Shown here piece after piece: positions 1 through 15,695 of a stretch of 15,695 bases of DNA (positions are counted from its first letter, which is position 1; each line of letters opens with the position of its first letter). This DNA is from Nitrospirota bacterium (lineage in GTDB: Bacteria > Nitrospirota > UBA9217): contig CAVUCU010000006.1 in NCBI GenBank assembly GCA_963740085.1, forward strand, positions 1 to 15,695, given 5' to 3'. The position numbers were made by a program, and so were the translations under genes. The notes beneath the pieces were generated by a model, which searched no databases, was not told the DNA's origin, and saw only the letters and a list, made by a program, of their open reading frames with translations.

Positions 1-75
1 GAGGAGTGGATGAAGTCGGCATCCAGCGGCCCGATGGGATAGTTTTTGGATGAGAAGTCGTAACTGCTCAGGCTT

Positions 76-166
76 GCCGCAAAAGAACACAAAGAACTCG
101 AAGAAAAAGCCAAAAATGATAATTTCGGTTTAAATTTATTCTGCGTTCCTTGCGTTCTTTCGCGGC
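76..166. repeat. Imperfect palindromic intergenic repeat (REP/MITE-like)
   Basis: GCCGCAAAAGAACACAAAGAAC (76-97) vs reverse complement of 145-166 (GCCGCGAAAGAACGCAAGGAAC): 19/22 match, AT-rich spacer, internal 9-nt periodicity. Confidence 0.7.
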
Positions 167-247
167 TATTAGATTTTGACCTGAGTAGATACGAGAAATC
201 AAGTTGAAACTCCGGGCCCGAGACTCTACTACATCAGGAGTGGACAC

Positions 248-3200
248 ATGGAACGAAAAAAGAAAAAAGCGCCTCCCAGTCGTTCTTCCCAAGGTCAGAA
301 AACCTCCAAAGGACCCAGGGTCGCGGTAAAGCCGTCCCTCCCTTCCCATGAAGAAATGCAACAGCTGAAGGCCGGTCCCTATGTTGTCGGCATCGGGGCG
401 TCCGCAGGCGGACTCGAGGCGCTGGAACTGTTCTTCAGCCACATGCCCCCGGACAGCGGCATGTCCTTTGTCCTGATCCCCCACCTTTCGCCGGACCGCA
501 AGAGCATCATGGCGGAACTTCTTCAACGGCATACCTCCATGAACGTCGCGCAGGCTGAAGAGGGGATGCGGGTCCTGCCGAACAGCGTGTACATCATCCC
601 CCCTAACCAGGACATGAACATCGAGGGCAATACGCTCAATTTGCTCGAACCCACAGCATACCACGGCATCCGCCATCCCATCGACTTCTTTTTCCGGTCC
701 CTCGCAAAGGACCAGGGAGAGCGTGCCATATGCATCATCTTCTCCGGGACGGGCACGGAGGGCACGCTTGGACTGCAGGCGATCAAGGGCGAAGGAGGGC
801 TTGTGCTGGCCCAGGAGGTCAAGACGGCAAAATATGACGGCATGCCGGCCTCCGCCATAGCCACGGACTCGTCGATTATATTCTCCCGCCGGAAAAAATG
901 CCCGAACTCCTGCTGCGCTACACGAAGAGCACCTTCACCCGCGCATTCAAGCCTCAGGTCAGGCCCGATGAAAAGCCGACCGAGGCCCTGCAGAAGATCT
1001 TCGCGATGATCAGGGTCCGGATGGGGCACGACTTTTCCCAGTACAAGCTGAACACGATCGTCCGCAGGATCGAGAAGCGCATGGTACTCCACCAGATAGA
1101 TACCTTGGACAACTATGTCTCATACCTTCGGAACAATGAATACGAGGTCGAAGCGCTCGCCAACGAACTGCTCATCCGGGTAACGAGCTTTTTCAGGGAC
1201 CCCGAGGCCTTCGACATCCTGAAACAGAAGGCCTTCCCCCGTATGTTCAAAGACAAGGTCTCCGGCAGCAACCTGCGCATCTGGGTCCCCGGATGTTCCA
1301 CCGGAGAAGAGGCCTATTCGCTTGCCATGGTCGCGCAGGAAACAATGCACGAGCACAACGTCAATTATAAGATCCAAGTCTTCGCCACCGACATCGACAG
1401 CAGGGCCATCGAGATCGCACGGGCTGGCCTGTACCCCGAGAGCATCACCGTCGACGTGTCTCCCGTGCGCCTGGCGCGTTTCTTCATCAGGAAGGGTCAG
1501 CAATATCAGATCAGGGATGATCTCAGGGAAATGGTGGTCTTCGCCGCACAGAACCTCATCAAAGACCCGCCGTTCTCGAAGATGGATATGATCAGCTGTA
1601 GGAACCTCCTTATCTATCTCGGGAGTGCGCTGCAGAAAAAGGTGCTGCCCCTGTTCCATTACTCACTGAATCCTGAAGGCATCCTGTTCCTTGGATCTTC
1701 GGAGACCGTGGGAGACTCTGTTGACTTCTTTTCCGTCCTCGATAAACGCTGGAAGGTCTTCTCGGCCAAGAAGATCGATGCCAACCGGGCCGCCGTGGTC
1801 GACCTCCGCTACCCCGTTTCCCCGGCAGGCCGGGCAAGAAAGGATGTCGTTCCTGAAGGCATGGGGCCGGTGAACGTCGCGGTCAGCAACGTCATGGAGA
1901 AGCTCCTGATCGAGCAGTACGCGCCTCCCAGCTGTATGGTGAACGATAAGGGCGATATCCTCTTTTTCCACGGCCGCACCGGCAGGTTCCTGGAGCCGGC
2001 CTCGGGCAAGGCCGCGCTCAACATCCTCGAGATGGCTCGCGAGGGCCTGCGTATCGAGCTCAGAACTGCGATCCGCAAGGCCCTGGACAAGAAAAAGGAC
2101 GTGGTCGTGGAAGGCCTGCAGATCAGATCGAACGGAGGCCACAGGAGCGTCAACCTGGAAGTTCGTTACGTAAAACAGCCGGAGCATCTGCAGGGACTGC
2201 TCCTCGTCGTATTTAACGAGCAGGCCGTCCCCCAAAGGCACAAGCAAGCGGTAAAGGCTACGACAAAGGCGGCGGGACACGCAAAGGTCAGAGCGGACGA
2301 ACGCGTCTCAGCAATGGAGTACGAGCTTAAGTCCACGAGAGAGCGTCTACAGACCACGGTTGAAGAACTGGAGACCTCGAACGAGGAGCTCAAATCGCTG
2401 AACGAAGAGCTGCAATCCTCGAACGAAGAGCTCCAGAGCACGAACGAGGAGCTGGAAACCTCGCGCGAGGAACTCCAGTCCGTGAACGAGGAACTGGTCA
2501 CGGTAAACACCGAACTTCAGAACAAGATCGAGGAGCTTTCCGATGCAAACAATGATATCGTCAACCTGCTCGAGAGTACCCTGATCGCAACGATATTCCT
2601 GGACAGCAAGCTGCGCATCAAGCGCTTTACCCCCACGCTCGCGGACCTCATAAACATCATCCAGACCGACGTCGGACGGCCCCTGGGCGACATCTCCGTG
2701 AAGCTGGACTATGCCGATCTCGTGGCGGACGCGGAGGAGACGGTCAGGACCCTCGAGACAAAGGAAAAAAGCGTCCGGCATGTGGACGGCCGCTGGTTCC
2801 TGGCGCGGGTCCTGCCCTACCGCACGGTTGAAAATGTCATCGACGGCATCGTCATCACCTTCATCGATATCACCGAGCAGAAGCGGGCCCAGGCGCTCCA
2901 GGATGCCCTCACCTATGCCGAGGGGATCGTGGACACCGTTCGCGAACCGCTCCTGGTCCTCGATGCGGACCTCCGGGTGATGTCCGCGAACAGGTCGTTC
3001 TACGAGATCTTCAGCGTATCTCGGGAAGAGACCGAGAAGAAGCTGGTGTACGAACTCGGCAGCGGGCAGTGGAACATCCCCGGGCTCAGGACCCTCCTGG
3101 AGGAGATCCTTACGAAAAGCGCGCAGTTCCGGGACTTCGTCGTGGACCATGAGTTTCCGGGCGTCGGCAGAAGGAAGATGCTGCTGAACGCCCGGCGGAT

Positions 3201-3267
3201 AAATCAGAACGAGGTCGGGACGCAAATGATACTCGTCGCGATGGAGGATGTGACGGGAAGAGGATAG
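248..3267 (+). CDS. CheB methylesterase-CheR methyltransferase-coiled coil-PAS fusion (CheBR type), split by a 1-nt frameshift near 865
   Basis: ORF 248-1009 has CheB motifs (VVGIGASAGG, PHL, PIDFFFRSLA, SGTGTEG). ORF 898-3267 has CheR motifs (VTSFFRD, RIWVPGCSTGEEAYS, FATDID, ISCRNLLIY), NEEL heptads and PAS domains. Adding one G to ACGGACTC (863-870) gives a continuous AIATGLVDYILPPEKMPELL. SD AGGAG at 236-240. Confidence 0.9.
2362..2496 (+). repeat. 21-nt coding heptad repeats (S/T-NEEL-x) in the CheBR coiled coil
   Basis: EELETSNEELKSLNEELQSSNEELQSTNEELETSREELQSVNEEL in the translation. Confidence 0.85.
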
Positions 3268-3279
3268 GGGACTAACACC

Positions 3280-4950
3280 ATGAAAAAAGCAAATTCAGAA
3301 ACTTCCGATCTCGCCGCTCTTCGCCGTAAAGCGCAGAAGAAGCTCAAAGAACAGACGGAGAGGCTGCAAGAGCTTTCCCAGCAGGATACGAAACGGCTCA
3401 TCACCGAACTGGGCACGCACCAGATCGAGCTGGAAATGCAGAACGAGGAGCTGCGCAGGGCCGAAAGGGAGCTCGGGGCCTCCCGCGACCGGTATGCCGA
3501 CCTGTATGATTTTGCGCCGGTCGGTTATTTTACGATTGATGAGCAGGGTATGATATGCGAAATAAATCAGAGCGGGGCCGACCTCCTTGAACTCGGCAAA
3601 CGCCTGTTGCTCAATAAATCGTTCACCTCCTTTCTCCTGGATATGTCCGATCAGCGGATATTTCGCGCCCACTGCGACGATGCGTTCCTCAAACAGACGC
3701 GGCAGTCCTGCGAGGTCAGGCTGAAAGGAAAAGACGGGCCTCCCTTGTATGTTCAGTTGCAAAGCATCGCGGCCGGCACGATCGAGGATAAAGCGGGTTC
3801 CCTGCGGATGACCGTTATCGATATCAACGAGCGCAAGCGGGCGGAGGAAGAACTGGGGAAGAGCAGGGAGCTCCTTCATTCGGTCATTGAAGGAACGTCG
3901 GATGCGATCTACGTGAAGGACCTGAAGGGACGATACCTTCTTTTCAATACAGCCTCTGAAGGCATAACAGGGAAGAACTCCGCCGAGGTGCTCGGCAAGG
4001 ACGACACCGTCCTCTTCCGGCCGGAAGAGGCAAAGATGGTCATGGCCGGCGACCGCGCGGTCATAAAAGCAGGCACGCGACAGACCTATGAAGAGGTCGT
4101 TACAACCGCATCGGGAGAAAAGCGGACCTATCTTTCCACAAAGGGTCCGTTGTTCGATAATGACGGCCGCCTCGCCGGCCTGTTCGGGATCGCGCGTGAT
4201 ATCACGGAACGCAAGAAAGCCCAGGAAGAGCTTCAGTCGACTCATGCTGAACTTGAGCGACAGGCATGCGAGCTCGAAGCGGTGAACCGGGAGCTGGAGG
4301 CCTTCTCTTACACGGTGTCGCACGACCTGAAAACGCCGCTTCGGAGCATCGGCGGTTTTGCCGGCGCGCTGCTCGAAGATTGCCCGGACAAACTCGACGC
4401 GACCTGCAGGGATTACCTTTCGCGGATAAACGCCGCTACGCTGCGGATGAACCAGCTCATCGATGCCATGCTGAAGATGGCGAAGTCAACACGCGGCGAG
4501 ATGCATGAAAATGTGGTCAATTTCAGCTCACTGGCAAAGGTCATAGCGCATGATCTAAAGAAACGGGATCCGGAACGACAGGTCGAATTCGTTATCGTTG
4601 ATAATATGAAGGTCAAGGGCGATGCGACAATGATGGAGGTAATGCTTCAAAACCTCATGGATAATGCATGGAAATTCACGAGTACGCATCAGACAGCCAG
4701 GATCGAGTTCGGGGTTGATGAGAGGGATGGCAAAACGGTATATTATGTTCGTGATGACGGCGCGGGCTTCAATATGCAATATGCCGACAAGCTCTTCATG
4801 CCTTTCCAGCGCCTGCATAAGGATTCCGAGTTTCCCGGCATCGGCATCGGTCTGGCCATCGCCCACCGCATTATCACGCGTCACGGCGGGCGGATTTGGG
4901 CCGAGGGAGAGATCGAAAAAGGCGCGACGATATTTTTCACCGTTGCGTGA
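3280..4950 (+). CDS. PAS/PAC sensor histidine kinase
   Basis: Two PAS/PAC regions, H-box FSYTVSHDLKTPL, N-box NLMDNAWKF, G1 DDGAGF, G2 GIGIGLAI. Starts 12 bp after the CheBR stop. Confidence 0.93.
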   Translation: MKKANSETSDLAALRRKAQKKLKEQTERLQELSQQDTKRLITELGTHQIELEMQNEELRRAERELGASRDRYADLYDFAPVGYFTIDEQGMICEINQSGADLLELGKRLLLNKSFTSFLLDMSDQRIFRAHCDDAFLKQTRQSCEVRLKGKDGPPLYVQLQSIAAGTIEDKAGSLRMTVIDINERKRAEEELGKSRELLHSVIEGTSDAIYVKDLKGRYLLFNTASEGITGKNSAEVLGKDDTVLFRPEEAKMVMAGDRAVIKAGTRQTYEEVVTTASGEKRTYLSTKGPLFDNDGRLAGLFGIARDITERKKAQEELQSTHAELERQACELEAVNRELEAFSYTVSHDLKTPLRSIGGFAGALLEDCPDKLDATCRDYLSRINAATLRMNQLIDAMLKMAKSTRGEMHENVVNFSSLAKVIAHDLKKRDPERQVEFVIVDNMKVKGDATMMEVMLQNLMDNAWKFTSTHQTARIEFGVDERDGKTVYYVRDDGAGFNMQYADKLFMPFQRLHKDSEFPGIGIGLAIAHRIITRHGGRIWAEGEIEKGATIFFTVA

Positions 4951-4955
4951 TAGGT

Positions 4956-5897
4956 ATGACGAAATCATTAGTTCACTCTGCCGCGAAGACACACATGAAC
5001 GAAGGCTGTGAATACCGCGAACAAGTCGGCCCTTCTGCTGATTCCCTGACGCTGCTGGCTTATCTGAGCGAGCGCTATCGTCACTCATCATCAGCGGAGT
5101 GGGCAACCCGCATCGCCTCCGGTCAGGTGCTTATCGATGATCTGCCTGCGCATGCCGACAGCGTGCTGGGCGCGGGATGCGTGCTGGCGTGGCGTCGCCC
5201 GCCGTGGATTGAGCCTGATGCTCCAAGGTCATTTCCCATTTTATATGAAGATGATGACGTGATCGCAGTGAACAAGCCGGCGGGATTGCCAACGCTTCCC
5301 GGTGCTAATTTTCTTCAGTCAACCCTGCTGCACCTCGTGCGGGTCCAAGCGCCTGACGCCGCTCCCCTCCATCGATTGGGTAGATGGACATCCGGTATAG
5401 TATTGTGCGCGCGGAACGACCATGCGCGGACGGAATTGATGCGGCAATGGTCGGCAAGGCAGGTCGGCAAACGCTACCGCGCGCTCGCGAGCGGGCGTCC
5501 TGATTGGGATGAGACGACGATCTCGACGCCTATCGGCCCGGTGCCGCACGCCTTGCTCGGCTCGGTGCATGCCGCGTCCCAAGAAGGCAAATCCGCTTTG
5601 TCTCACGTGACCGTCATCGAACGTCGCGAGGATTCCTTCCTCTGCGATGTACGTATTGAGACGGGCCGTCCACACCAGATCCGCATTCACCTGGCATACT
5701 CGGGACACCCTCTGGTTGGCGATCCTCTGTACGGCGCAGGCGGTTTGCCCCTGCCGGACACACACGCCTTGCCCGGCGACCCGGGCTACCATCTTCATGC
5801 CGCAATTCTGAGCTTTCGTCATCCCGGCACCGGGCGCGCGATGGTCATCGAGTGCGAGCCGCCGTCGTTATTACGAGTTCATTCAGGTTCGCAGTGA
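4956..5897 (+). CDS. RluA-family RNA pseudouridine synthase
   Basis: Motifs VNKPAGL, HRLGRWTSG, KRYRA, ETGRPHQIRIH, GHPLVGDPLY, LHA. Start is ATG 4956 or 4995; the ORF-track start at 4896 overlaps the kinase. Confidence 0.9.
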   Translation: MTKSLVHSAAKTHMNEGCEYREQVGPSADSLTLLAYLSERYRHSSSAEWATRIASGQVLIDDLPAHADSVLGAGCVLAWRRPPWIEPDAPRSFPILYEDDDVIAVNKPAGLPTLPGANFLQSTLLHLVRVQAPDAAPLHRLGRWTSGIVLCARNDHARTELMRQWSARQVGKRYRALASGRPDWDETTISTPIGPVPHALLGSVHAASQEGKSALSHVTVIERREDSFLCDVRIETGRPHQIRIHLAYSGHPLVGDPLYGAGGLPLPDTHALPGDPGYHLHAAILSFRHPGTGRAMVIECEPPSLLRVHSGSQ

Positions 5898-6054
5898 GAG
5901 CCGGGAGGTTGGAAACTGTTTTCGTGCAATTTGAAGAAGATGTTGGGCTTCATTATGCTCAGCCCAATCGACACGCTGCTCTTAGAATCGTAAATTGCTA
6001 CTTGAAATATTCATTTTATGCTATATTCGAATGGCAAGAAGTGCTTTCCGTACT
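5610..6054 (+). repeat. Direct repeat copy 1 (rluA 3' end plus downstream intergenic DNA)
   Basis: Manual alignment to 13851-14287 gives about 94% identity. Confidence 0.95.
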
Positions 6055-6169
6055 CCGCAACAGATACGTTTTATGAAAAATTCATATTTTACGCTGTCAT
6101 CAACCATCTTCATCTCTTCCGAATGGATTGACTTTTATTTAATATAATGTCAAAGAATCGTGTTTTCGC

Positions 6170-8575
6170 ATGACAAGAGAGGGCGCCATGGCGGTTGTTC
6201 TGTTGCTTGCGCTGGTCTGGTTATTGGCATATTTTCGGGTTAAGCTCCGGGTCTGGACCATTGTGGTTGCGGCGTTCCTGGGGTATTTGACCGTTGCAGG
6301 TCGGGGAACCACGGTTGCCTGGTTGATCTTTGTGCTGGCTGCGGCGATCTTGAATGTTGTGCCGCTTCGTCGTGTGCTCCTGAGCAGACCGCTGCTTGGC
6401 CTGTTCCGAAAATTGCTCCCCCCCATGTCCCAGACAGAACGGGAAGCGCTTGAAGCCGGCACCGTATGGTGGGACGGAGAACTTTTCAGCGGCCGGCCAA
6501 ACTGGCAAAAACTTCTGGCCGAACCCGGGCCTGCATTGACTCCGGAAGAGCAGAAATTCCTCGACGGACCGGTGGAAGAGCTTTGCCTGATGCTCGACGA
6601 CTGGAAGATCTGTAAAGAACTCCACGACCTGCCGCCGGAGGTCTGGAAATTCATCAAGGACAAAGGCTTTTTCGGCATGATCATCCCAAAGGAGTATGGC
6701 GGGCTGCAATTCTCGGCCATGGCCCATTCGCAGGTGATCATGAAGATATCCAGCCGCAGCATTACCGGCGCAGTGACCGTGATGGTTCCCAACTCCCTTG
6801 GCCCGGCCGAACTGCTGCTGCACTATGGCACAGAGAAACAAAAGGACCACTATCTGCCACGGCTTGCCCGGGGGGAGGAAGTTCCGTGCTTTGCACTGAC
6901 CGGGCCCGAAGCGGGAAGCGACGCCGCGTCCATTCCCGATATCGGCATCGTCTGCCGTGGGACGTTCGAGGGAAAAGAGAGGCTCGGCATCCGCCTCAAC
7001 TGGGAAAAACGTTACATCACCCTCGGGCCGGTTGCTACCATTATCGGGCTGGCCTTCAGGCTGAATGATCCCGACCATCTTCTTGGCGACAAGGAGGATA
7101 TCGGCATCACCTGCGCCCTGGTCCCCTCAAAACTTCCCGGCATCACCATCGGCACTCGTCACGATCCACTCGGCATTCCGTTTCAGAACGGTCCCACCTG
7201 GGGCAAGGACGTGTTCATCCCGATCGATTTTATAATCGGTGGCGATGCCATGGCCGGCCAGGGATGGCGAATGCTCATGGAGACCCTCGCTACCGGCCGT
7301 GGCATCTCTTTGCCCGCCCTCAGCACCGGCGCAGGTAAACTGACTTCCCGCGCCATCGGTGCTCATGCGCGGATCCGAAAGCAGTTTAAGCTCCCCATCG
7401 GCCGCTTTGAGGGGATCGAAGAGCCGCTGGCCAGGATCGGAGGCGCCACCTATTTGATGGATGCAGCGCGGGTCATGACCTGCGGCGCCATCGACCAGGG
7501 CAGGAAACCGGCGGTGATCACCGCCATCGTGAAATATCATCTGACCGAGCGGATGCGCAAGGTGGTGAATGACGGCATGGATGTGCAGGGCGGCGGCGGT
7601 ATCATTCTCGGCCCGCGCAACTTCCTCGGCCGGACCTATCAGTCGGCGCCGATCGGGATCACGGTAGAAGGGGCCAATATCCTGACCCGTTCCATGATCA
7701 TATTCGGTCAGGGTGCTATTCGCTGCCATCCGTATATTCAGCAGGAAATGCAGGCGGCGACTGATCCGGACCAACAGAAGGGGTTGGCGCTCTTCGACCG
7801 GGCGCTGTTCGGCCACATCGGCTACTTGATCAGCAACGCAGGCCGGACTCTTTTCCTGGGAATGACCGGCGGCCGGCTGGTCAGAGTCTCTGGCGGGCCG
7901 GCCCGCCGCTATTTCCAGAAGGCGACGCGTCTCTGCGCGGCTTTTGCCCTGACCGCCGATGCGGCGCTGATGCTTTTGGGGGGAAATTTGAAGCGCAAGG
8001 AAAAGCTCTCCGGCCGTTTGGCGGACATCCTGAGCATCTCTACCTGCTGTCGGCGGTGCTCAAACAGTATGAGGACCGGCGTCGGCCGCAGGACCAATGG
8101 CCGCTGTTCAAATGGGCCTGTGAGGAAAGTCTTTTCGGCATCTAGGAGAGTTTCGCCGGCCTCCTGCGCAACTTCCCGAATCGCCCTGCGGCCTGGCTTC
8201 TCAGGCTGCTCGTTTTCCCGCTCGGCCGCCCCTTTGCCGGACCGAGTGACCGCCTTGGTCGCCGGGTTGCGGGCATCCTGCTTGAACCGTGCTCAGCAAG
8301 AGACCGTTTGACCGCCGGGTTGTTTCTCCCCAAGAGTTTGACAGAGCCGCTCGGCCGGCTGGAAGACGCTTTGCCCAAGGTTATCGCCGCTGAGCCGGTG
8401 GAGAAAAAACTGCGGGATGCGATGCGGGTCGGCAAACTTAAGGAGCAGCCCGATGTCCTGCTCCTTGAAGAGGGGGCCAGGGCAGGGGTTGCGACAGTGG
8501 CCGAGGCGAGATCTTGCGTCTGGTTCTTCTTGCCCGCGCCTAGGTGGTCCGGGTGGTGATTTCTCCAAATTATAG
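6170..8575 (+). pseudogene. fadE: FadE-type acyl-CoA dehydrogenase with disrupted C-terminal region
   Basis: LPPMSQTEREALEAGTVWWDGELFSG, FALTGPEAGSDA, ITVEGANILTRS. Missing C at about 8035 (LADILS-HLYLLSAVLK), in-frame TAG 8143-8145, shift at about 8508, TAG 8541-8543. The C-terminal remnant ends near 8575. Confidence 0.85.
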
Positions 8576-8889
8576 AAAACAACGCCCATGCAGATTCTCA
8601 GCGCCTACGGCTTTTTCTTTCAGTGCAAAATGAGCCACTGGCGCATAATTACCGGGCCAAAAGGGTTCGATACCTGACCACCCTTCTCCCTTAATCCATA
8701 AAACCGGCTACTTCGAATACCTTTACGAATAACTCCCACGGTATGGTCTTGCTATATTTTGAGAAGCAAGACAACCAATGATTCCTTATCGTTAAACAAT
8801 GAGGCTCCTTACATGAATTAAATAGGCATTTGGTACTACAGATTGTCGGGCTTAAGGTAAAACTATTTTGTTATCAGGAGGGCCGCGCC

Positions 8890-9096
8890 ATGGAATGCAA
8901 TTTTCTATCGGGAAATTATATGAAATACTGCACCGAAAGCCGTGAAGGCTACATCCCAAGTGCATTCGAAATGCAGGAGTATTGCACATCAAGGAGGCAC
9001 ACCCTTTGCACATTCTTCTGCAGAAGGCAAGCGGAATTCCCGAGTTTCAGATCGAACAAAGCGCCGGCCTGCCGCTCGCCAAGTCGACGAACGTAA
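8890..9096 (+). CDS. Small Cys-rich hypothetical protein
   Basis: SD AGGAGG upstream of ATG 8890. Sequence MECNFL...YCTE...YIPSAFEMQEYC...HTLCTFFC. Confidence 0.6.
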   Translation: MECNFLSGNYMKYCTESREGYIPSAFEMQEYCTSRRHTLCTFFCRRQAEFPSFRSNKAPACRSPSRRT

Positions 9097-9154
9097 TGGG
9101 ATCGCCTTCGGGAAAAAATATGAGGCCGCTGCGCGAAACAATAGGAAATACATT

Positions 9155-9327
9155 GTGCAAAAAAATACGGATATCAACGGCATTACTATAGCGGCGGCAT
9201 TACTTGCTCTTTCATCATGCTTTCCGGTTGTTGTTCCAGAAGGCCTGGGCACGGGCACATGCCCGTTCCTGCGCCCGTGCCGGTGCCCGCTCCGGCGCCA
9301 CCGCATCCGAAACCCCAAGTTTATTAA
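9155..9327 (+). pseudogene. Small lipoprotein with Pro-rich tail, frameshifted
   Basis: Frames join into KKIRISTALL-IAAALLALSSC (lipobox)-FPVVVPEG-GHGHMPVPAPVPVPAPAPPHPKPQVY*, with TAA at 9325-9327. Confidence 0.45.
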
Positions 9328-9423
9328 ATGCGGAAAAACACGCGGGGCGGTTTCGAGTTATTGTTGAAGGAAAGCAAAAAGGCCTGATCACAAGCATAAC
9401 GTTCCTACGATGCGGGGGTTGTT

Positions 9424-9522
9424 ATGAAGGACGAAAGAAAAGTGTACGAAGAAAAGCTTGATGCGCAGTTGAAGGAATGGAGCGCACAGTTCGCCCTGCT
9501 CAAGGCCAAGCAAGGAAGATGA
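9424..9522 (+). pseudogene. Truncated coiled-coil stress-protein remnant (Sll1863-like)
   Basis: MKDERKVYEEKLDAQLKEWSAQFALLKAK resembles the N-terminus of this family as I recall it. Stops after 32 aa. Confidence 0.55.
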
Positions 9523-9595
9523 TATTAAAATAGAGTCTAAGAACGCGTCGTCGCCTTGACGGGAAAGTCTCGGAAAAATCCCATAAATCAATGGT

Positions 9596-9937
9596 CAGGA
9601 GACAGTGGCAGGTCTGCCCGGGGTGAAAAGCGTGGACAACAGGCTGGAAGTCAAAGGTGATCACCCCGCCGAGCAGTCGGATGCGTGGCTGATTGCGAAG
9701 GTGAAAACCACGCTCTTGTTCCATCGCAGCGTGAGCGGACTCAAAACCGAGTGAACGCTGAAAGACGGGATCGTCACCTTGCAAGGCGAAGCAACCAGCG
9801 AGGCGCGAAAGCAACTGACGACCAAATACGCCAAGGACGTGGAAGGGTCAAAGACGTTAAAAATCAGATGACCGTGTCCAAGACCCGAAAAAAATGGCGA
9901 GGACAACGGGTGATAAGATCGATGACGCCTCCATTAC
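9596..9937 (+). pseudogene. Multi-BON (OsmY-like) domain protein fragment
   Basis: Across shifts: QETVAGLPGVKSVDNRLEV...SDAWLIAKVKTTLLFHRSVS...KDGIVTLQGEA...YAKDVEG-VKDVKNQMTV...DKIDDASIT. No start, and truncated at the beginning of the next BON repeat. Confidence 0.85.
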
Positions 9938-9956
9938 AAAAAAGGAGGAAACACAA

Positions 9957-10243
9957 ATGAACGAAGACCTGGACAAATTGATTTCCCGTCGCACACTGCT
10001 TAAAGGCGCTGCTGCGGTAACATGCGTCGCACTCGCGTCCGCTTTCGGCGGCAAGGCATTTGCAGCAACAGTAAAATCGACCAAAGCCGTAGCGAAGTAC
10101 CAAGACACGCCGAATGGCGATAAGAAATGAGCAATTCAACTTCTATCGAAGGCAAGACGCCAATGGCTGACGGTACCTGTCAGCTCGTGGAGGGTTCGAT
10201 CAGCCCAGAGGGCGACTGTGCCTTGTATATCAAGAAAGCCTAA
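9957..10243 (+). pseudogene. Tat-exported high-potential iron-sulfur protein (HiPIP), frameshifted
   Basis: SD AGGAGG; Tat motif SRRTLLK and AFA cleavage site; YQDTPNGDKK; in other frames (C)SN(C)NF..EGKTPMADGTCQLVEGSISPEGDCALYIKKA*. This fits the HiPIP C-x2-C...C...C spacing. Confidence 0.8.
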
Positions 10244-10358
10244 TGCAGCGCCTCGGGGCCTCAGCCAGAATGGTTGATAGTTGAAAATTAAGTGACCTGC
10301 CCCTTGCAACGTGGTTATACTTGGGAACAGGGTTCCAAGTAAAAAAGGAGGAGTAATC

Positions 10359-10983
10359 ATGAAATACACATTTGCTCTATCTCTGTTTCTTGTCTCGCAG
10401 TTCTGATCGCTCTTGCACCCTCCGCCTCCCGGGCTGAGACGGCGTCGAAAAAAATTCCAACTACACGGTGATCAAGGGAGGGATCTATTCACCCAGCGAC
10501 TCGTACGATCTTGACAATTTCAACAATGGCAGCACAAGTCGTTTGGACACCAAGACCGGTTTCAATGGAGAGCTCGCGTTCGGTCATTACTTCTTACCCA
10601 TATTCGGCATTGAACTAGGAGCCGGATACTTTGAGAGCAAGGGTTCACCGGCGGCAGAGCCGGGAAGTACGAAACTGAAGGTCATCCCGGTGCTTGCGAG
10701 CGCCAAGGTCTTTCTCCCGCTCGGGCCGATCGAGCCCTACGGCGAGGTCGGGATCGGCGCTTACTTCACGAAACTTGAAGTAAGCGGCAATCTCGGAAGC
10801 TTCAGCGGTTCATCGAAAGTTACCTACGGAGTCCATGCAGGGGTCGGATTGAACATCAACTTTTCGGACACCTTTTTCCTCGGGGCTGAGGGAAGATACA
10901 TCCGGGCCAAGCCGGAATTCGGAGGTCAGCCCGTCAAGTTGAACGGATTTACCGCAACAATTGATCTCGGCTTCAGGTACTGA
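10359..10983 (+). CDS. Small outer-membrane beta-barrel protein (OmpA/OmpW-like), signal region frameshifted
   Basis: SD GGAGG and ATG 10359 start a signal peptide (MKYTFALSLFLV..AVLIALAPSASRA) broken by two shifts. ORF 10468-10983 has amphipathic strands, PYGEVGIG and a terminal aromatic residue (LGFRY). Confidence 0.8.
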
Positions 10984-11029
10984 TCATCCTCTGATAACTT
11001 TTTATGATAAAAAAAGGAGGTGAACCGAC

Positions 11030-11320
11030 ATGAAGATGAAATCTATTATTACCGTCCTGGTGACCGCGGCATTTCTCCTGAGTTTAGCAGGCCTCAGCCT
11101 CGCAGCCGGAGCTGATAAAATGGGAGTTAACGGTTCCGTTACCAGGATCGAAGGAAATAAGGTGACCATACAGGACGATATGGGCAAGGAGACGACCGTT
11201 GATGTACAAGACGTAAAAGACACCAAGGTCGGAGACAAGGTCAAGATCGAAGACGGCGTTATTAAGAATCCAACCGACGAACCTGGAGCGGCCGAGAAAT
11301 CTGGAAAACCGGGCTACTAA
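11030..11320 (+). CDS. Small secreted hypothetical protein (possible OB-fold-like)
   Basis: SD AGGAGG, Sec signal ending SLA, beta-rich GSVTRIEGNKVTIQD...KVGDKVKI. Confidence 0.8.
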   Translation: MKMKSIITVLVTAAFLLSLAGLSLAAGADKMGVNGSVTRIEGNKVTIQDDMGKETTVDVQDVKDTKVGDKVKIEDGVIKNPTDEPGAAEKSGKPGY

Positions 11321-11339
11321 AAAGGACTCTATTTAAGCA

Positions 11340-11374
11340 AAGGTGGAAAACGACTGTTTTCCACCTTGTTTTTT
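11340..11374 (+). terminator. Rho-independent terminator
   Basis: Perfect 12-bp stem AAGGTGGAAAAC-GACT-GTTTTCCACCTT followed by GTTTTTT, 20 nt after the stop at 11320. Confidence 0.85.
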
Positions 11375-11447
11375 GAAGAAGCCACCGCTTATTCATAATT
11401 GGCTGTTTTGGAATGAACAAATTCACTCATTCAAAAAGGAGCATACT

Positions 11448-11540
11448 ATGCTTTGGACGATCTTTGTAATTCTTATGATTATGTGGCTTCTGGGATTAGT
11501 AAGCGGATATACGATCGGTGGATACATTCATATTCTGTAA
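11448..11540 (+). pseudogene. lmo0937-family small membrane protein, C-terminally truncated
   Basis: SD AGGAG; MLWTIFVILMIMWLLGLVSGYTIGGYIHIL* lacks the usual second helix and basic tail. Confidence 0.75.
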
Positions 11541-11629
11541 TCCTGACAGCGAAATAATTTGCGATAATAAGAAGAATGTCCCGAATCTGGACAAGAAAAA
11601 CTCTTATGAAGAACCAAGGAGGGGATGAA

Positions 11630-11818
11630 ATGGCAAGATACGGTAAGAAGGCACAGGAAACGGTTGAGGAAGCAATGAAAAGGTTTAAGAAAGGTGAACT
11701 GAAAAGCGGCAAAAGTGGGGTAAAAGTAAAAAACAAAAAACAAGCGGTCGCTATCGGACTTTCGGAAGCGCGGGCAAAGGGAGCCAAGGTGCCGCCAGTT
11801 CCAAAAAAGTTAAAGTAG
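11630..11818 (+). CDS. Small basic protein, DUF6496-like
   Basis: SD AGGAGG; MARYGKKAQETVEEAMKRFKKGELKSGKSG.KVKNKKQAVAIGLSEARAKGAKVP. Confidence 0.8.
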   Translation: MARYGKKAQETVEEAMKRFKKGELKSGKSGVKVKNKKQAVAIGLSEARAKGAKVPPVPKKLK

Positions 11819-11985
11819 TTTATGGAAGATTCCCTCTTGCGACCGCGGCCGCCTCTAAAAATATCCGCTTTTCTGAAATCCTTATAACCAAGTGATATAA
11901 TAAATTGTGAGTAGCATGGCACTCTATGATTAAGATTGTAATATGTGTAATACTCCTTGGATTCGTCACTTTTTCGAGGTGACTT

Positions 11986-13031
11986 GTGAAACAGAAATTA
12001 CTATCCTTTTCCCTTACCGGCATGTTTCTCCTCGCCCTTTTCTATACTGCATATTTTGCCCGTGCCGTACTCCTTCCTATAATCCTGGCCCTTTTTTTTA
12101 CTTTTCTCCTGAGGCCGATCGTCAGGATGTTAAAGACGATTAAGGTTCCCGAGGCGGCAAGTTCAGCTCTGGTCCTGATCTCGTTTCTGGCGATCGTCGG
12201 GTTTGGTATGGCGAGGCTTGCTGATCCTGTCCAGGAATGGATCGAGAAGGCGCCTCAGACGTTCCATCAGGTAGTGCAAAAGTCCAAAAGGTTCATGAAG
12301 CCCATAAAAAAGGCAATGAAAACTGCCGACGAATTAAAAGAAACCGCAGGGGCCGGCGAGAAGAAAAAAACCGAAGCTGTACCTCCAGACCCAATTCCGA
12401 ACCTGACCTTGACATTTCTTTCAGAGGCCAAAGCTTTTTTGACCAAGACCGGTCTTGTTCTCATCCTTCTTTTTTTCTTCTTGCCTCCGGCGACCATTTT
12501 GTCGTAAAGCTGATGCATCTTTTTCGGCAGAATCAAAAAAAGGAAAAAGTGCAGGAGTTTGTGAATGAGATAGAGAAAACGATTTCGCGATACCTGTTGA
12601 CGGTGACCATGATCAACGCCGGTGAGGGTATCGTGCTCGTAGTGGGACTGCATCTCGTCGGGATGCCGGACCCCGTACTTTGGGGAATAATGGCCGCTTT
12701 GCTCATATATATCCCCTATCTCGGACCGCTGGTCGGCATTACGCTCGTTACCATCGTCGCCTTGGGGACTATAGATGACATGCAAAAAGCAGTTCTTGCT
12801 CCGATTATTTATCTTTCCATCGAGCTTCTTCAGTCCCAACTGGTAACTCCAATGGTCCTCGGCGCGCGGTTTTCAATGAACCCGGTCGTCATCTTTGTCT
12901 GGCTCATCTTCTGGGGATGGCTATGGGGAATCGTCGGCGCACTGATCGCCGTGCCGATGCTTACGATCTTTAAAATATTTTGTGATCATATCGAACCGCT
13001 TCAATCGCTCGGGGAATTTCTGTCGGATTAA
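11986..13031 (+). CDS. AI-2E family transporter, frameshift in a T run at 12470-12476
   Basis: One extra T gives LILLFFLLASGD and joins ORFs 11986-12507 and 12237-13031. Motifs YIPYLGP, LVTPMVLG, WGWLWGIVGALIAVP. Confidence 0.88.
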
Positions 13032-13117
13032 AGATTAAAATAAGTTTGCGCTGCCGAATCATTGGAACGTGGCTGGCCCCTCGGAGGCGTACGGGGTCAG
13101 ACTTAAAGATTGAGTTA

Positions 13118-13146
13118 TTGACGCCCGTCGGGATATTTTCTATCCT
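13118..13146 (+). promoter_or_regulatory. Sigma70-like promoter for the Y1 transposase, probably leaderless
   Basis: TTGACG-17 nt-TATCCT, with ATG 5 nt after the -10 and no SD. Confidence 0.55.
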
Positions 13147-13151
13147 CTGCC

Positions 13152-13822
13152 ATGGCTAGAAAACCCCGAATTGAATACGAAGGCGCCTTTTATCATGTAA
13201 TCACCAGAGGAAACCAGAAGCAGAAGATATTTAAAGATCCCCTCGATTATCGTAAATTTCTTGAAATACTTATCGGCTACAAACAACGCTATCATTTTCA
13301 TCTCTATGCATACATACTCATGTCCAACCATGTGCACCTTCTGATTGAAACCAGGGCCATTCCGCTCTCCAAAATCCTTCAGGGCGTTAACCAGAGGTAT
13401 ACCATGTACTATAACCGAAGGTACAAGACCGTGGGCACAAAAACGGAGCTGTCAGAATTGCTTGACACCGACCTTGTTCTCAGAATGTTTTCCGAGAACA
13501 AAGGCAGAGCACGAAAACAGTACTCGATGTTCATGAACGACGGAGCAACAATCAAGCAGGAAGACGTCTTGCCCCGGCTAGCAGGAGAGATTGCTCGGCA
13601 GTGCGCCGTTTCGCTTGAGGATCTGCGATCATGGAGAGAACCACAAATATCTTGACTGCTCGACCACTCTTCAGTATTCTAGCGAAGGAATATGGTTATA
13701 CAGGGCGAGAGATCGCGGCGTATTTGCGGAAAGACCCCGCGGCTGTGACTGTGTATCTCCGGAGTAGCAAGGATGTTTGGAAAGAAATAGAAGTTGTGGC
13801 CGCAGCTTTAAAGAAGGAATAA
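13152..13822 (+). pseudogene. Y1 HUH transposase with C-terminal HTH, catalytic region deleted and frameshifted
   Basis: MARKPRIEYEGAFYHVITRGN...YILMSNHVHLL (HUH). The usual HLFQGRY...YIH.NP segment is absent after YKTVG. HTH-like GYTGREIAAYLRKDPAAV lies in a second frame. Confidence 0.85.
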
Positions 13823-13850
13823 GTAACTCAATCTTTAAGTCTGACCCCAT

Positions 13851-14138
13851 ACCGTCATCGAACGCCGCGAAGATTCCTTCCTCTGTGATGTCCGAATTGA
13901 GACAGGCCGTCCACACCAGATCCGCATTCACCTGGCATCCTCGGGACACCCTCTGGTTGGCGATCCTCTGTACGGCGCAGGCGGTTTGCCCCTGCCGGAT
14001 ACACATGCCTTGCCCGGCGACCCGGGCTACCATCTTCATGCCGCAATTCTGAGCTTTCGTCATCCCGGCACCGGGCGCGCGATGGTCATCGAGTGCGAGC
14101 CGCCGTCGTTATTACGAGTTCATTCAGGTACGCGGTGA
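13851..14138 (+). pseudogene. 3' fragment of a second rluA-family gene
   Basis: TVIERREDSFL...HSGTR* aligns codon for codon with 5610-5897; no 5' part. Confidence 0.93.
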
Positions 14139-14287
14139 GAGCCGGGAGGTTGGAGGCTGCTTTCCGCAATTTGAAGAAGATGTTGGCTCACTATGCTCAG
14201 CCCAATCGATACGCTGCTCTTAGAATCGTAAATTGCTTCTTGAAATATTCATTCTATGCTATATTCGAACGGCAAGAAGTACTTCCT
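13851..14287 (+). repeat. Direct repeat copy 2, interrupted by the IS110 element
   Basis: About 94% identical to 5610-6049. Similarity appears to resume at 15694-15695 (GT), where the window ends. Confidence 0.92.
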
Positions 14288-14301
14288 CCTACGATTAGTT
14301 G

Positions 14302-14310
14302 TGCTATATA
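14302..14310 (+). promoter_or_regulatory. -10 half (TGc-TATATA) of a circle-junction promoter; -35 TTGACT at 15688-15693
   Basis: Joining right end, core and left end gives TTGACT-17 nt-TATATA. Confidence 0.65.
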
Positions 14311-14314
14311 GATG

Positions 14315-14462
14315 TCATAGAAGGGCAGGAGAACTTAGTTTACTTCCTGGGTCCTTGAACCCTCAGTACAGTTTGTTCCCTGCCTCCCATAGCCATGATA
14401 GGTTGATTGGGCCAAAGAGCCCTGGTAACGATGGAGGATTGGTCGGGAGGCGTTTCCTGCCT
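14315..14462 (+). ncRNA. Putative IS110 bridge RNA (ends approximate)
   Basis: Two stem-loops with large internal loops, each capped by a GGGY-6nt-RCCC hairpin. Loop segments match the target (TACTTCCT, AGTACAG) and donor (GGTTGATT, GGAG). Confidence 0.8.
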
Positions 14463-14490
14463 GTCTAAATCTTGCATGGAGGAGGGATCA

Positions 14491-15687
14491 ATGGAAAGTT
14501 TGACCGTTGGCGTCGATGTTTCCAAAGAGTCCTTTTCTGCCGCTGGCCTTGACGGCAAAGGGACACGCTGTTTCGCCCAAGATTGTACCATGGACAGTGA
14601 TGGGTTCTCGAAGTTGCTGAAGATGATAATGGCACAGCAACCATATGTTTCTACGGTCATCGTCGGCATGGAGTCCACGGGCTGCTATCACATCAATCTA
14701 TTCTCTTATCTCACGTCTCAGGGCATCCGAGCCGTAGTCATTAACCCGCTGTTGATTTCGAACTTTGCCAAACTTACGCTCCGGAAGACCAAGACCGATA
14801 AGAAAGACGCACTGACGATCGCCCAGTTCCTGCTGGCTCACACGGATAAGATTTCTCAGATGTCCGTCAGCCAGGATATGCAGGATATGCGAGATCTCGC
14901 CCGGGAGAGAGAGTCGCTGAGCCATTTGATTTCCGCGACCAAGACCGAGATCAAGCGGGTCTTGCAGACGACCTTTCCTGAGCTTGAGCGGCTCTGCGGC
15001 GTCTATTCGGGCATCATGCTTGAATTTCTGAAGAAGTTTCCCTCGGCTCGTTTGATTGTGCTTGCCAAACCCCGGGCAATAGCTAAAGCTATGGAGCCAC
15101 GAGGTTCAGGGAGCAGAATATCAACCTTTACGGCGGAGGATATCATCAAACTGGCCAAGAACTCGGTTGGGACGGTCAGTCCAGCCAAAGAGACTATCCT
15201 CCGGGGGAAAATCTCGACACTAATCCATCTGGAGGATCGTCGAGATGAGTTGACGGTCATGCTCACGGACTACTGCAACTCTCTGATGGTCGAAGACCTG
15301 GAGATTGTAACATCCGTGGTAGGCATCGGTAACGGAACCGGTACCACTTTTTTGGCTGAGCTAGGACGAATCGAGAGCTACGAGACGCACAAACATTTGA
15401 TTGCCTACGCAGGGATTGATCCAACAGTGTATCAATCCGGCAAGTACGAGGGAAAGAGCAGAATCTCAAAGAGAGGAAATAGGCACCTTCGACGTGTTCT
15501 TTGGCTCATGACGGTAAATGTGATCCTCAATAACGATAAATTCCGAGCGTATTACCAGAAAAAGAAACAAGCTGGATTGCCTTATAAGAAAGCAGTCATG
15601 GCAACAATGCATAAACTTACTCGAATGCTTTTTGCCATGTTGTCACACAAACAGAGATATCTGGCATCATCGGTGAGCTGCACATAG
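14491..15687 (+). CDS. IS110-family DEDD recombinase/transposase (398 aa)
   Basis: VGVDVSK (D), GMESTG (E), KTDKKDA (D,D), Tnp-domain YAGIDP.VYQSG, SKRGNRHLR. SD GGAGG before ATG 14491; intact ORF. Confidence 0.95.
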   Translation: MESLTVGVDVSKESFSAAGLDGKGTRCFAQDCTMDSDGFSKLLKMIMAQQPYVSTVIVGMESTGCYHINLFSYLTSQGIRAVVINPLLISNFAKLTLRKTKTDKKDALTIAQFLLAHTDKISQMSVSQDMQDMRDLARERESLSHLISATKTEIKRVLQTTFPELERLCGVYSGIMLEFLKKFPSARLIVLAKPRAIAKAMEPRGSGSRISTFTAEDIIKLAKNSVGTVSPAKETILRGKISTLIHLEDRRDELTVMLTDYCNSLMVEDLEIVTSVVGIGNGTGTTFLAELGRIESYETHKHLIAYAGIDPTVYQSGKYEGKSRISKRGNRHLRRVLWLMTVNVILNNDKFRAYYQKKKQAGLPYKKAVMATMHKLTRMLFAMLSHKQRYLASSVSCT

Positions 15688-15695
15688 TTGACTGT

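Follow-up and report, generated by a model that had tools for sequence, protein, structure and literature searches.

The site GTGCTTTCCGTACT, at positions 6041 to 6054, is probably a diverged counterpart of the 14-nt address of an IS110-family insertion sequence (IS) found in a second copy of the same repeat, and it appears to have served as a rearrangement junction rather than to represent the empty allele of that insertion. The window, that is, the whole 15,695-nt stretch of DNA that was analyzed, is the entire contig C6 of a 3.46-Mb, seven-contig Nitrospirota assembly and has no sequence past 15695. Another contig, C5, is 100% identical at 70518-67823 to window 13000-15695 (99.4% identity for C5:73485-67823 versus window 10024-15695), and bases past the window end were read from this identical copy. 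The features surrounding the site and the second repeat copy are as follows.

4896 to 5897, forward strand: open reading frame (ORF) of the rluA gene, encoding an RluA-family pseudouridine synthase
5610 to 6046, forward strand: repeat copy 1, the 3' end (last 290 nt) of the rluA gene plus about 150 nt of intergenic DNA
6019 to 6027, forward strand: extended -10-like hexamer TGCTATATT, 14 nt upstream of the site, found in all repeat copies and in the G004 and G005 modules
6041 to 6054, forward strand: copy-1 site GTGCTTTCCGTACT, the unoccupied, diverged counterpart of the 14-nt IS target, at the junction of the rluA-side repeat and the FadE block
6045 to 8579, forward strand: displaced FadE block (homology to C5 from 6041 on), with a leader CCGCAACAG..., an acyl-CoA dehydrogenase ORF (6170-8311), and a short downstream ORF
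13089 to 13852, forward strand: unit with a Y1 (IS200-like, REP-associated) transposase gene (13152-13655) between 29-nt inverted repeats (13089-13117 and 13824-13852)
13851 to 14284, forward strand: repeat copy 2, a 5'-truncated rluA fragment plus intergenic DNA

The two repeat copies (5610-6046 and 13851-14284) were 94.3% identical over 437 nt, and the 11 substitutions between the rluA copies were mostly synonymous (1, 2, and 8 by codon position). The truncated rluA copy begins exactly at the outer end of the right arm of the Y1 unit, whose 29-nt inverted repeats are 97% complementary; the Y1 transposase itself scored 37 bits in NCBIfam, under the cut-off of 80, and has a relative (71%) at C1:130919. 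The FadE block was 90.6% identical over about 2.5 kb to C5:120695-118154. The features of the IS in copy 2 and of its target are as follows.

14279 to 14287, forward strand: left target GTACTTC (14279-14285) and core CT (14286-14287), the left IS junction in copy 2
14288 to 15691, forward strand: body of the IS110-family element, 1404 nt (1406 nt with one CT core), without terminal inverted repeats
14323 to 14384, forward strand: predicted target-binding stem-loop of the bridge RNA (stem 14323-14334 with 14375-14384; inner hairpin 14349-14362)
14339 to 14348, forward strand: predicted left target guide UUUACUUCCU, on the 5' side of the internal loop
14363 to 14371, forward strand: predicted right target guide UCAGUACAG, on the 3' side of the internal loop
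14385 to 14490, forward strand: remainder of the non-coding left end, including the presumed donor-binding loop (GAUAGGUUGAUU ... ACGAUGGAGGA), assigned by eye and conserved in G020 and G036
14491 to 15687, forward strand: recombinase gene (398 amino acids), with Pfam and NCBIfam matches
15688 to 15693, forward strand: TTGACT at the right end, including the core CT (15692-15693)
15694 to 15695, forward strand: GT, the start of the right target, at which the contig ends

The IS starts with CCTACG at 14288, and the window ends in TTGA-CT-GT (15688-15695). The C5 copy continues past the point corresponding to the window end as ACTCGTTGTAG, supplying the missing ACT, and in the copy on contig C7 the same TTGACTGT is continued by AGTCTGCAG. 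The target is thus GTACTTC-CT-GTACT in C5 and C6 and GTACTTC-CT-GTAGT in C7. A preliminary description of the window had reconstructed the copy-2 target as GTACTTCCTGT(ACT), and the C5 copy confirmed it, including the three unseen bases. The three differences that the same description had reported for copy 1, among them a core of CC for CT, were borne out at 6041-6054: G for A at position 3, T for C at position 7, and C for T at position 9, the second core base. The GTACT of copy 1 does agree with the right guide, as had also been claimed, in that the reverse complement of UCAGUACAG is CTGTACTGA, i.e., the core plus GTACT.

A match at 11 of 14 positions is, taken by itself, at chance level; the genome contained 273 14-mers with exactly three mismatches, compared to about 253 expected from arithmetic that assumes uniform base composition. 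The copy-1 site is meaningful because it is placed at the aligned end of the 437-nt repeat. All three differences fall within the 9 nt of left target and core (P of about 0.01 to 0.02 versus the divergence of the flank; 0.07 when all 14 nt are considered), so that the excess of differences in this part over the expectation from flank divergence was only mild.

In an empty-site comparison, the occupied locus is aligned with a homologous site that lacks the element, so that the ends of the element and its target can be read. The comparison requires homology on both sides, and copy 1 offers only the left. The preliminary description had proposed copy 1 as a natural empty-site control; this holds for the left flank, but the right flank comes from a different gene block. 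At the level of the repeat, homology did not resume beyond the IS as had been expected. The sequence after the IS (GTACTCGTTGTAGTTGC..., or GTACTCGTTGTAGTTGCATTTTG...) and that of copy 1 (GTACTCCGCAACAG..., or GTACTCCGCAACAGATACGTTTTATG...) have six bases, GTACTC, in common, after which similarity was about 55 to 60% over about 30 nt, as judged by eye, and then there was no blastn match. Whether the right flank of copy 1 is to be called a different module is a matter of degree, since it has weak, family-level similarity to the right flank of the IS. Similarly, the suggestion that copy 1 fixes the IS boundaries independently stood for the left boundary, which it places within a few bases, but the right boundary was set by the comparison of C5 with C7 and by true empty forms. 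Its further claim that copy 1 supplies the bases beyond the window was correct, as the ACT predicted past 15695 is the ACT of the C5 copy. As far as sequence comparison can tell, copy 1 is half a control and not the empty allele of the copy-2 insertion, and a paralogous "empty site" can mislead unless homology has been verified on both sides.

Homology on both sides was found at two other places. In the related genome G005, the sequence ...GGCAAGAAGTACTTCCTGAACTCGTTGAAGTCGCATTT... joins the left flank of copy 2 to the right flank of the C5 copy; the final 45 nt of the former run directly into the site GTACTTCCTGAACT and then into about 68 nt of the latter. The orthologue of this locus in G004 has a 5-nt deletion (CTGAA) at the site. 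In the soil-metagenome run X1, one contig of 325 nt (depth, 3.2) joins both flanks and omits 1407 nt, with one letter in between; the 1406 nt missing on balance correspond to the IS together with one core. The site in this empty form is GTACTTC-TT-GTACT; with a single contig at depth 3.2, the T in its core may be genuine or an error. No contig bridged the occupied left junction of copy 2 in four metagenome runs, in which contigs only were compared, at the C5 locus, and in which contigs end at the IS boundary; uncovered stretches in this comparison carry no meaning. A scan of the metagenomes with GGCAAGAAGTNCTTNC was set aside because the pattern was too loose; it returned at least 118 loci, all of them chance-like, the best of which agreed with the promoter-like flank at 15 of 31 upstream bases.

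The evidence that the copy-1 site is a junction comes from the positions at which homology stops and starts. Homology between copy 1 and copy 2 stops at 6046, and homology between the window and C5:120695 begins at 6041. The FadE locus at C5:120695 has its own site, GTACTTCCTGAACT, and is syntenic with G004 for about 3.8 kb beyond FadE, where the window is not, which identifies C5:120695 as the native FadE locus. When G004 was compared with the window and with C5:120695, homology began in both cases at the right part of the site, and the sequences upstream were unrelated among all three. In G004 the rluA side lies far from the FadE side. None of the matches listed for 40 relatives spanned the copy-1 site. 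No target-like site was found at the right end of the FadE block (about 8579-8617) or at the right end of the variable region between C5 and C6.

If copy 1 were instead a plain ancestral empty site, the repeat would be a simple paralogous duplication and the loss of similarity on the right would reflect unrelated later divergence or replacement that happened to begin at the site. The close similarity of the left flanks up to the site, the GTACTC common to both copies after it, the distant likeness of all leaders in the module family, and a site followed by a somewhat copy-1-like leader after the closest rluA in G003 would all agree with this. However, identity falls from 94% to family level inside the 14-mer, a second, independent block (the FadE block) begins at the same bases, the same breakpoint recurs against G004, and the last 45 nt of the promoter-like left flank join the other leader type in G004, G005, and copy 2. 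An ancestral empty site therefore seems improbable.

The site belongs to a small family of host modules. A profile of the site and leader found about 10 to 12 members in the genome, upstream of unrelated genes. The rluA-linked left flank occurs with one leader type in copy 2, G004, and G005, with the FadE leader in copy 1 only, and with a third type in G001. Copy 1 can thus be regarded as a recombinant, because it alone joins the rluA-linked left flank to the FadE leader. The IS was found in none of the eight other genomes of the genus that were searched, from which it follows that the motif is a host feature that the IS adopted as its address. A site beside rluA also appears to be old in the genus because the closest rluA orthologue (92.7%), in G003, is followed by one, GTACTTCCTGAACA, 28 nt after its stop codon (locus L015), at a position that lacks the 125-nt promoter-like stretch; the leader there resembles both leader types. 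From its sequence we infer that TGCTATATT is a promoter; a promoter scan that demanded a -35 hexamer did not list it.

The shared module ends on the right in a small hairpin, ATTCGG...CCGAAT in G005 (L025) and ATTCC...GGAAT in the assembly studied here (G000, C5:67780-67760), and one pair differs between the two on both sides. The possibility that the module is a small RNA gene was dismissed, as the folds from G005 and G004 were no more stable than those of shuffled sequences. A palindromic operator (AGTAC N5 GTACT) was also rejected, the palindrome being unconserved in other members of the module family.

The junction would fit the following history. The 1406-nt IS would have recombined into the GTACTTC-CT-GTACT of copy 2, guided by its own bridge RNA. 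On its right, copy 1 carries the displaced FadE leader and gene block, whose native locus is C5:120695, whereas the IS in copy 2 is followed by the leader to which relatives join this promoter-like left flank directly. Homology blocks change partners exactly at the site in three contexts, and the site has therefore probably served as a rearrangement junction, which might most simply have come from events involving copies of the IS. IS copies in different modules could have recombined, with excision afterwards, or an IS-cargo-IS unit could have been mobilized, as in ISPpu10. The layout of the window, in the order repeat copy, FadE block, other genes, Y1 transposase with its 29-nt inverted repeats, truncated repeat copy, and IS, could be read as an 8.24-kb insertion at the rluA-linked site. 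The mostly synonymous differences between the rluA copies would be in accord with a donor and a recipient strain, for which 11 substitutions are thin evidence.

ISPpu10 of Pseudomonas putida is the nearest precedent for an arrangement in which a repeat and a displaced gene block both stop at a target site. According to the report on that element (bioRxiv 10.64898/2026.03.19.712850), its insertions into copies of one conserved intergenic sequence bound segmental amplifications and also IS-cargo-IS units that moved to distant targets. In the ISPpu10 study, the cargo was seen between two IS copies and the events were tracked by laboratory experiment, whereas here there is one IS only, the history is reconstructed from the present arrangement, and the junction at copy 1 has no IS and a mutated site. 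A further preprint (bioRxiv 10.64898/2026.08.31.748434) was part of the literature considered.

A broader proposal, which can be offered only tentatively, is that the 14-nt address is a portable junction: IS110 copies residing in different modules would allow the cell or the recombinase to swap the blocks to the left and right of them, and the window would record one such event. The right junction of one IS copy might pair with the left junction of another to yield a cargo circle with a hybrid target, or an IS-cargo-IS unit might move; by either route, the reshuffling of promoters and gene blocks would be exact to the single base. Under the portable-junction proposal, the rluA-linked site would have received the 8.24-kb segment, which extends from the FadE block to the Y1 transposase and a foreign rluA-promoter fragment; one end of the insertion would be marked by the hybrid site at 6041-6054, since mutated, and the other by the IS. 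If such IS-mediated exchange did take place, IS110 elements would reshuffle promoters and genes in wild genomes. In the window, homology blocks change partners exactly at the target of a bridge recombinase, a natural example that fits the recent laboratory finding that IS110 insertions bound segmental rearrangements, and the junction behavior of the site is the part worth pursuing.

As judged from sequence, the element in copy 2 belongs to the bridge-RNA insertion sequences of the IS110 family and is an ordinary representative of this known kind. The recombinase matched PF01548 (DEDD_Tnp_IS110, the N-terminal RuvC-like domain) with 128.2 bits, PF02371 (Transposase_20, the C-terminal domain) with 87.2 bits, and NF033542 (IS110 family RNA-guided transposase) with 236 bits (cut-off, 140). 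None of the 15 inverted-repeat pairs found connects the two ends of the IS. The core CT stands at both junctions (14286-14287 and 15692-15693), the same dinucleotide, with no longer target duplication. Relatives of the recombinase were found in Nitrospirota, Thermodesulfovibrionales, and delta-proteobacterial metagenome-assembled genomes. The element in G020, the left end of which is 90% identical, is followed by no intact recombinase gene and thus has no readable right junction.

There are three copies of the IS in the assembly, on C5, C6, and C7, in two site contexts; the C5 and C6 copies may be one locus. Loose contig ends in run X1 include the C7-type insertion and a further IS copy at TTCCTTC-CT (left junction only) that has the left flank of C5:197361, a site that is empty in this genome. 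The three site contexts have CTTC-CT-GTA in common (the third as far as its left junction), i.e., insertion is sequence specific. Compared with the C5 and C6 copies, the C7 copy has a G-to-C change at the equivalent of window position 14349, the first base of the inner hairpin directly after the left target guide, and this base would face target position 10.

The non-coding left end of the IS is 203 nt long, and its fold puts both guides in one internal loop around a small hairpin. The left guide (UACUUCCU) reads in the same sense as the left target with its core, and the core plus GTACT is the complement of the right guide (UCAGUACAG). The fold energy of the left end was no better than that of shuffled sequences (z = -0.91), and because a minimum-energy fold alone is no evidence, the assignment of the loop rests on covariation. 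At the Rfam gathering score, no bridge-RNA family matched in the window or in eight loci, the sole match being a tRNA in one of the loci (L011). In the presumed donor loop, as judged by eye, GGUUGAUU can pair with the complementary strand of AGTTGACT if two wobbles are allowed, and CGAUGGAG fits the complement of CTCCTACG only discontiguously; the ends of the IS hardly vary among relatives. On a circular form, TTGACT would lie 17 nt from TATATA (14305-14310) and would form a predicted -35/-10 pair across the joined ends, by analogy with IS621 and ISPpu10.

Many of these properties are shared with IS621, the IS110-family element of E. coli, as it is presented in Durrant et al. 2024 (PMC11208160). 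Both have a two-domain recombinase, CT at both junctions, no terminal inverted repeats, and a long non-coding left end upstream of the gene, with a loop in which a target-sense left guide and a complementary right guide both include the CT core, as is described there for the two guides of the IS621 bridge RNA. They also have in common a -35/-10 pair that is divided over the right and left ends (predicted from sequence in the present case) and a target that is a short motif within a repeated intergenic element. IS621 is reported there to strongly prefer a matched CT core and to tolerate few mismatches, and low tolerance, strongest at the core, was likewise read here from natural junctions. Compared with that account of IS621, the element described here has its own guides and its own target, GTACTTC-CT-GTACT, with a right guide that pairs with 5 nt plus the core; its host element is a low-copy (about 10 to 12) family of promoter-like/leader modules and not a REP hairpin; and it is known from its sequence. 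Exact ends, target, and guides are thus available for a previously undescribed IS110-family element of an uncultured lineage.

Covariation of guides and targets was examined in 81 elements, comprising 80 loci (of the 277 recombinase relatives reported) and the C5 copy, and 40 of the 81 had the same loop architecture. Left targets agreed with their own guides at 4.91 of 7 positions (33 junctions), compared to 3.08 for foreign pairs, and right targets at 3.65 of 5 positions (26 junctions), compared to 1.72 for foreign pairs. For left and right alike, 0 of 2000 shuffles reached the match observed with the own guide; junctions were called by pattern from conserved end motifs and the elements are related, so the shuffles overstate the significance. 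The position-by-position match in the 33 left junctions was as follows: position 7, 33/33; positions 5 and 6, 29/33; position 4, 24/33; position 3, 17/33; and position 1, 10/33. The core at the left junction equaled that of the guide in 30 of the 33, the three exceptions being CA-core elements in which the pattern was out of register. The natural junctions of relatives thus provide a position-by-position map of the target mismatches that these elements tolerate; mismatches were frequent at positions 1 to 3, and there were none at position 7 or, apart from the register exceptions, in the core. At six loci (L155, L156, L163, L171, L176, and L231), elements whose left guide is NTACTTCCT are inserted in NTTCTTCCT, with a recurrent A-versus-T mismatch at left-target position 3, which suggests that this position may not be read.

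The differences in copy 1 can be placed on this map. It had been proposed that they may explain why only copy 2 was hit. In favor of this, two of them fall at position 7 and in the core, where mismatches were not tolerated in natural insertions, although the third falls at position 3, which was frequently mismatched. Since position 7 matched the guide in every left junction of the relatives, copy 1 is probably a poor target, and the junctions of these non-independent relatives, together with the IS621 data, make it most likely that copy 1 would be a poor substrate. However, the emptiness of copy 1 needs no special explanation and carries no information, because two better matches to the target, C1:954357 (perfect, 14/14) and C5:120695 (13/14), are likewise unoccupied in this genome.

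The copy-1 site might alternatively be a scar or an "immunized" site, i.e., a once-good target, possibly occupied in the past, in which changes that disrupt the core became fixed after loss of the IS or through selection against reinsertion. Three of the four unoccupied sites with the promoter-like left flank are changed at or beside the core (copy 1, CC; G004, the CTGAA deletion; X1, TT), G005 being intact, and the clustering of the copy-1 differences in left target and core points the same way. However, only four sites are involved, one of them a single low-depth contig, and other members of the module family retain CT. The absence of the IS from the eight other genomes of the genus makes selection against it there doubtful, and IS110 excision is described in the literature as precise or as leaving the donor site intact. 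This explanation is also unlikely.

Assembly quality bears on whether the junction exists at all. The C5 counterpart of window 1-10023 is poor, with homopolymer runs of 168 and 56 nt, stretches with a GC content of 0.73 to 0.85, 62 indel columns, and a flat codon-position spectrum. The C6 and C5 versions may be one locus assembled twice or two loci. Although the seven-contig assembly, a genome contamination of 2.67%, the repeats that flank C6 at each end, and the poor C5 counterpart would permit C6 to be a chimera or a strain-variant bubble with a copy-1 junction absent from any one genome, such an artifact is very improbable, given that the ORFs of C6 are intact and its differences have a normal codon-position spectrum (41, 39, and 104 in FadE, in addition to the 1, 2, and 8 in the rluA repeat), that the stretch common to both parental types at the junction (about 15 nt at most) would not suffice for a k-mer misjoin, and that the copy-1 14-mer has unique differences found in neither parental type. 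A diverged counterpart of the IS110 address that served as a rearrangement junction remains the preferred reading of the copy-1 site.

Several minor observations concern the same contigs. A third repeat copy (C5:77275-76166) was set aside as poor assembly, in that successive runs of A, T, A, and G interrupt its site right behind GTACTTC. These runs begin at C5:76165, within an anomalous region (C5:73500-77999 of G000), and are followed by 2.5 kb at a GC content of 0.73 to 0.85, plus 500 nt at 0.26, so that the junk sequence starts precisely at the IS target. The FadE ORF at 6170-8311 has a single-column indel compared to its C5:120695 paralogue at window position 8035, about residue 622, and the Pfam ACDH_C and NCBIfam FadE matches end exactly there; the window copy may be frameshifted. 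A gene for an AI-2E family transporter (11986-13031) is divided between two ORFs that overlap, one covering profile positions 6-158 and the other 154-326, probably because of a frameshift or a sequencing error. Near the left contig end, some 135 nt (58-192) form a segment that has about 20 occurrences on C1, C3, and C4 at 72 to 96% identity and is, from this distribution, a putative MITE- or REP-like dispersed short repeat.
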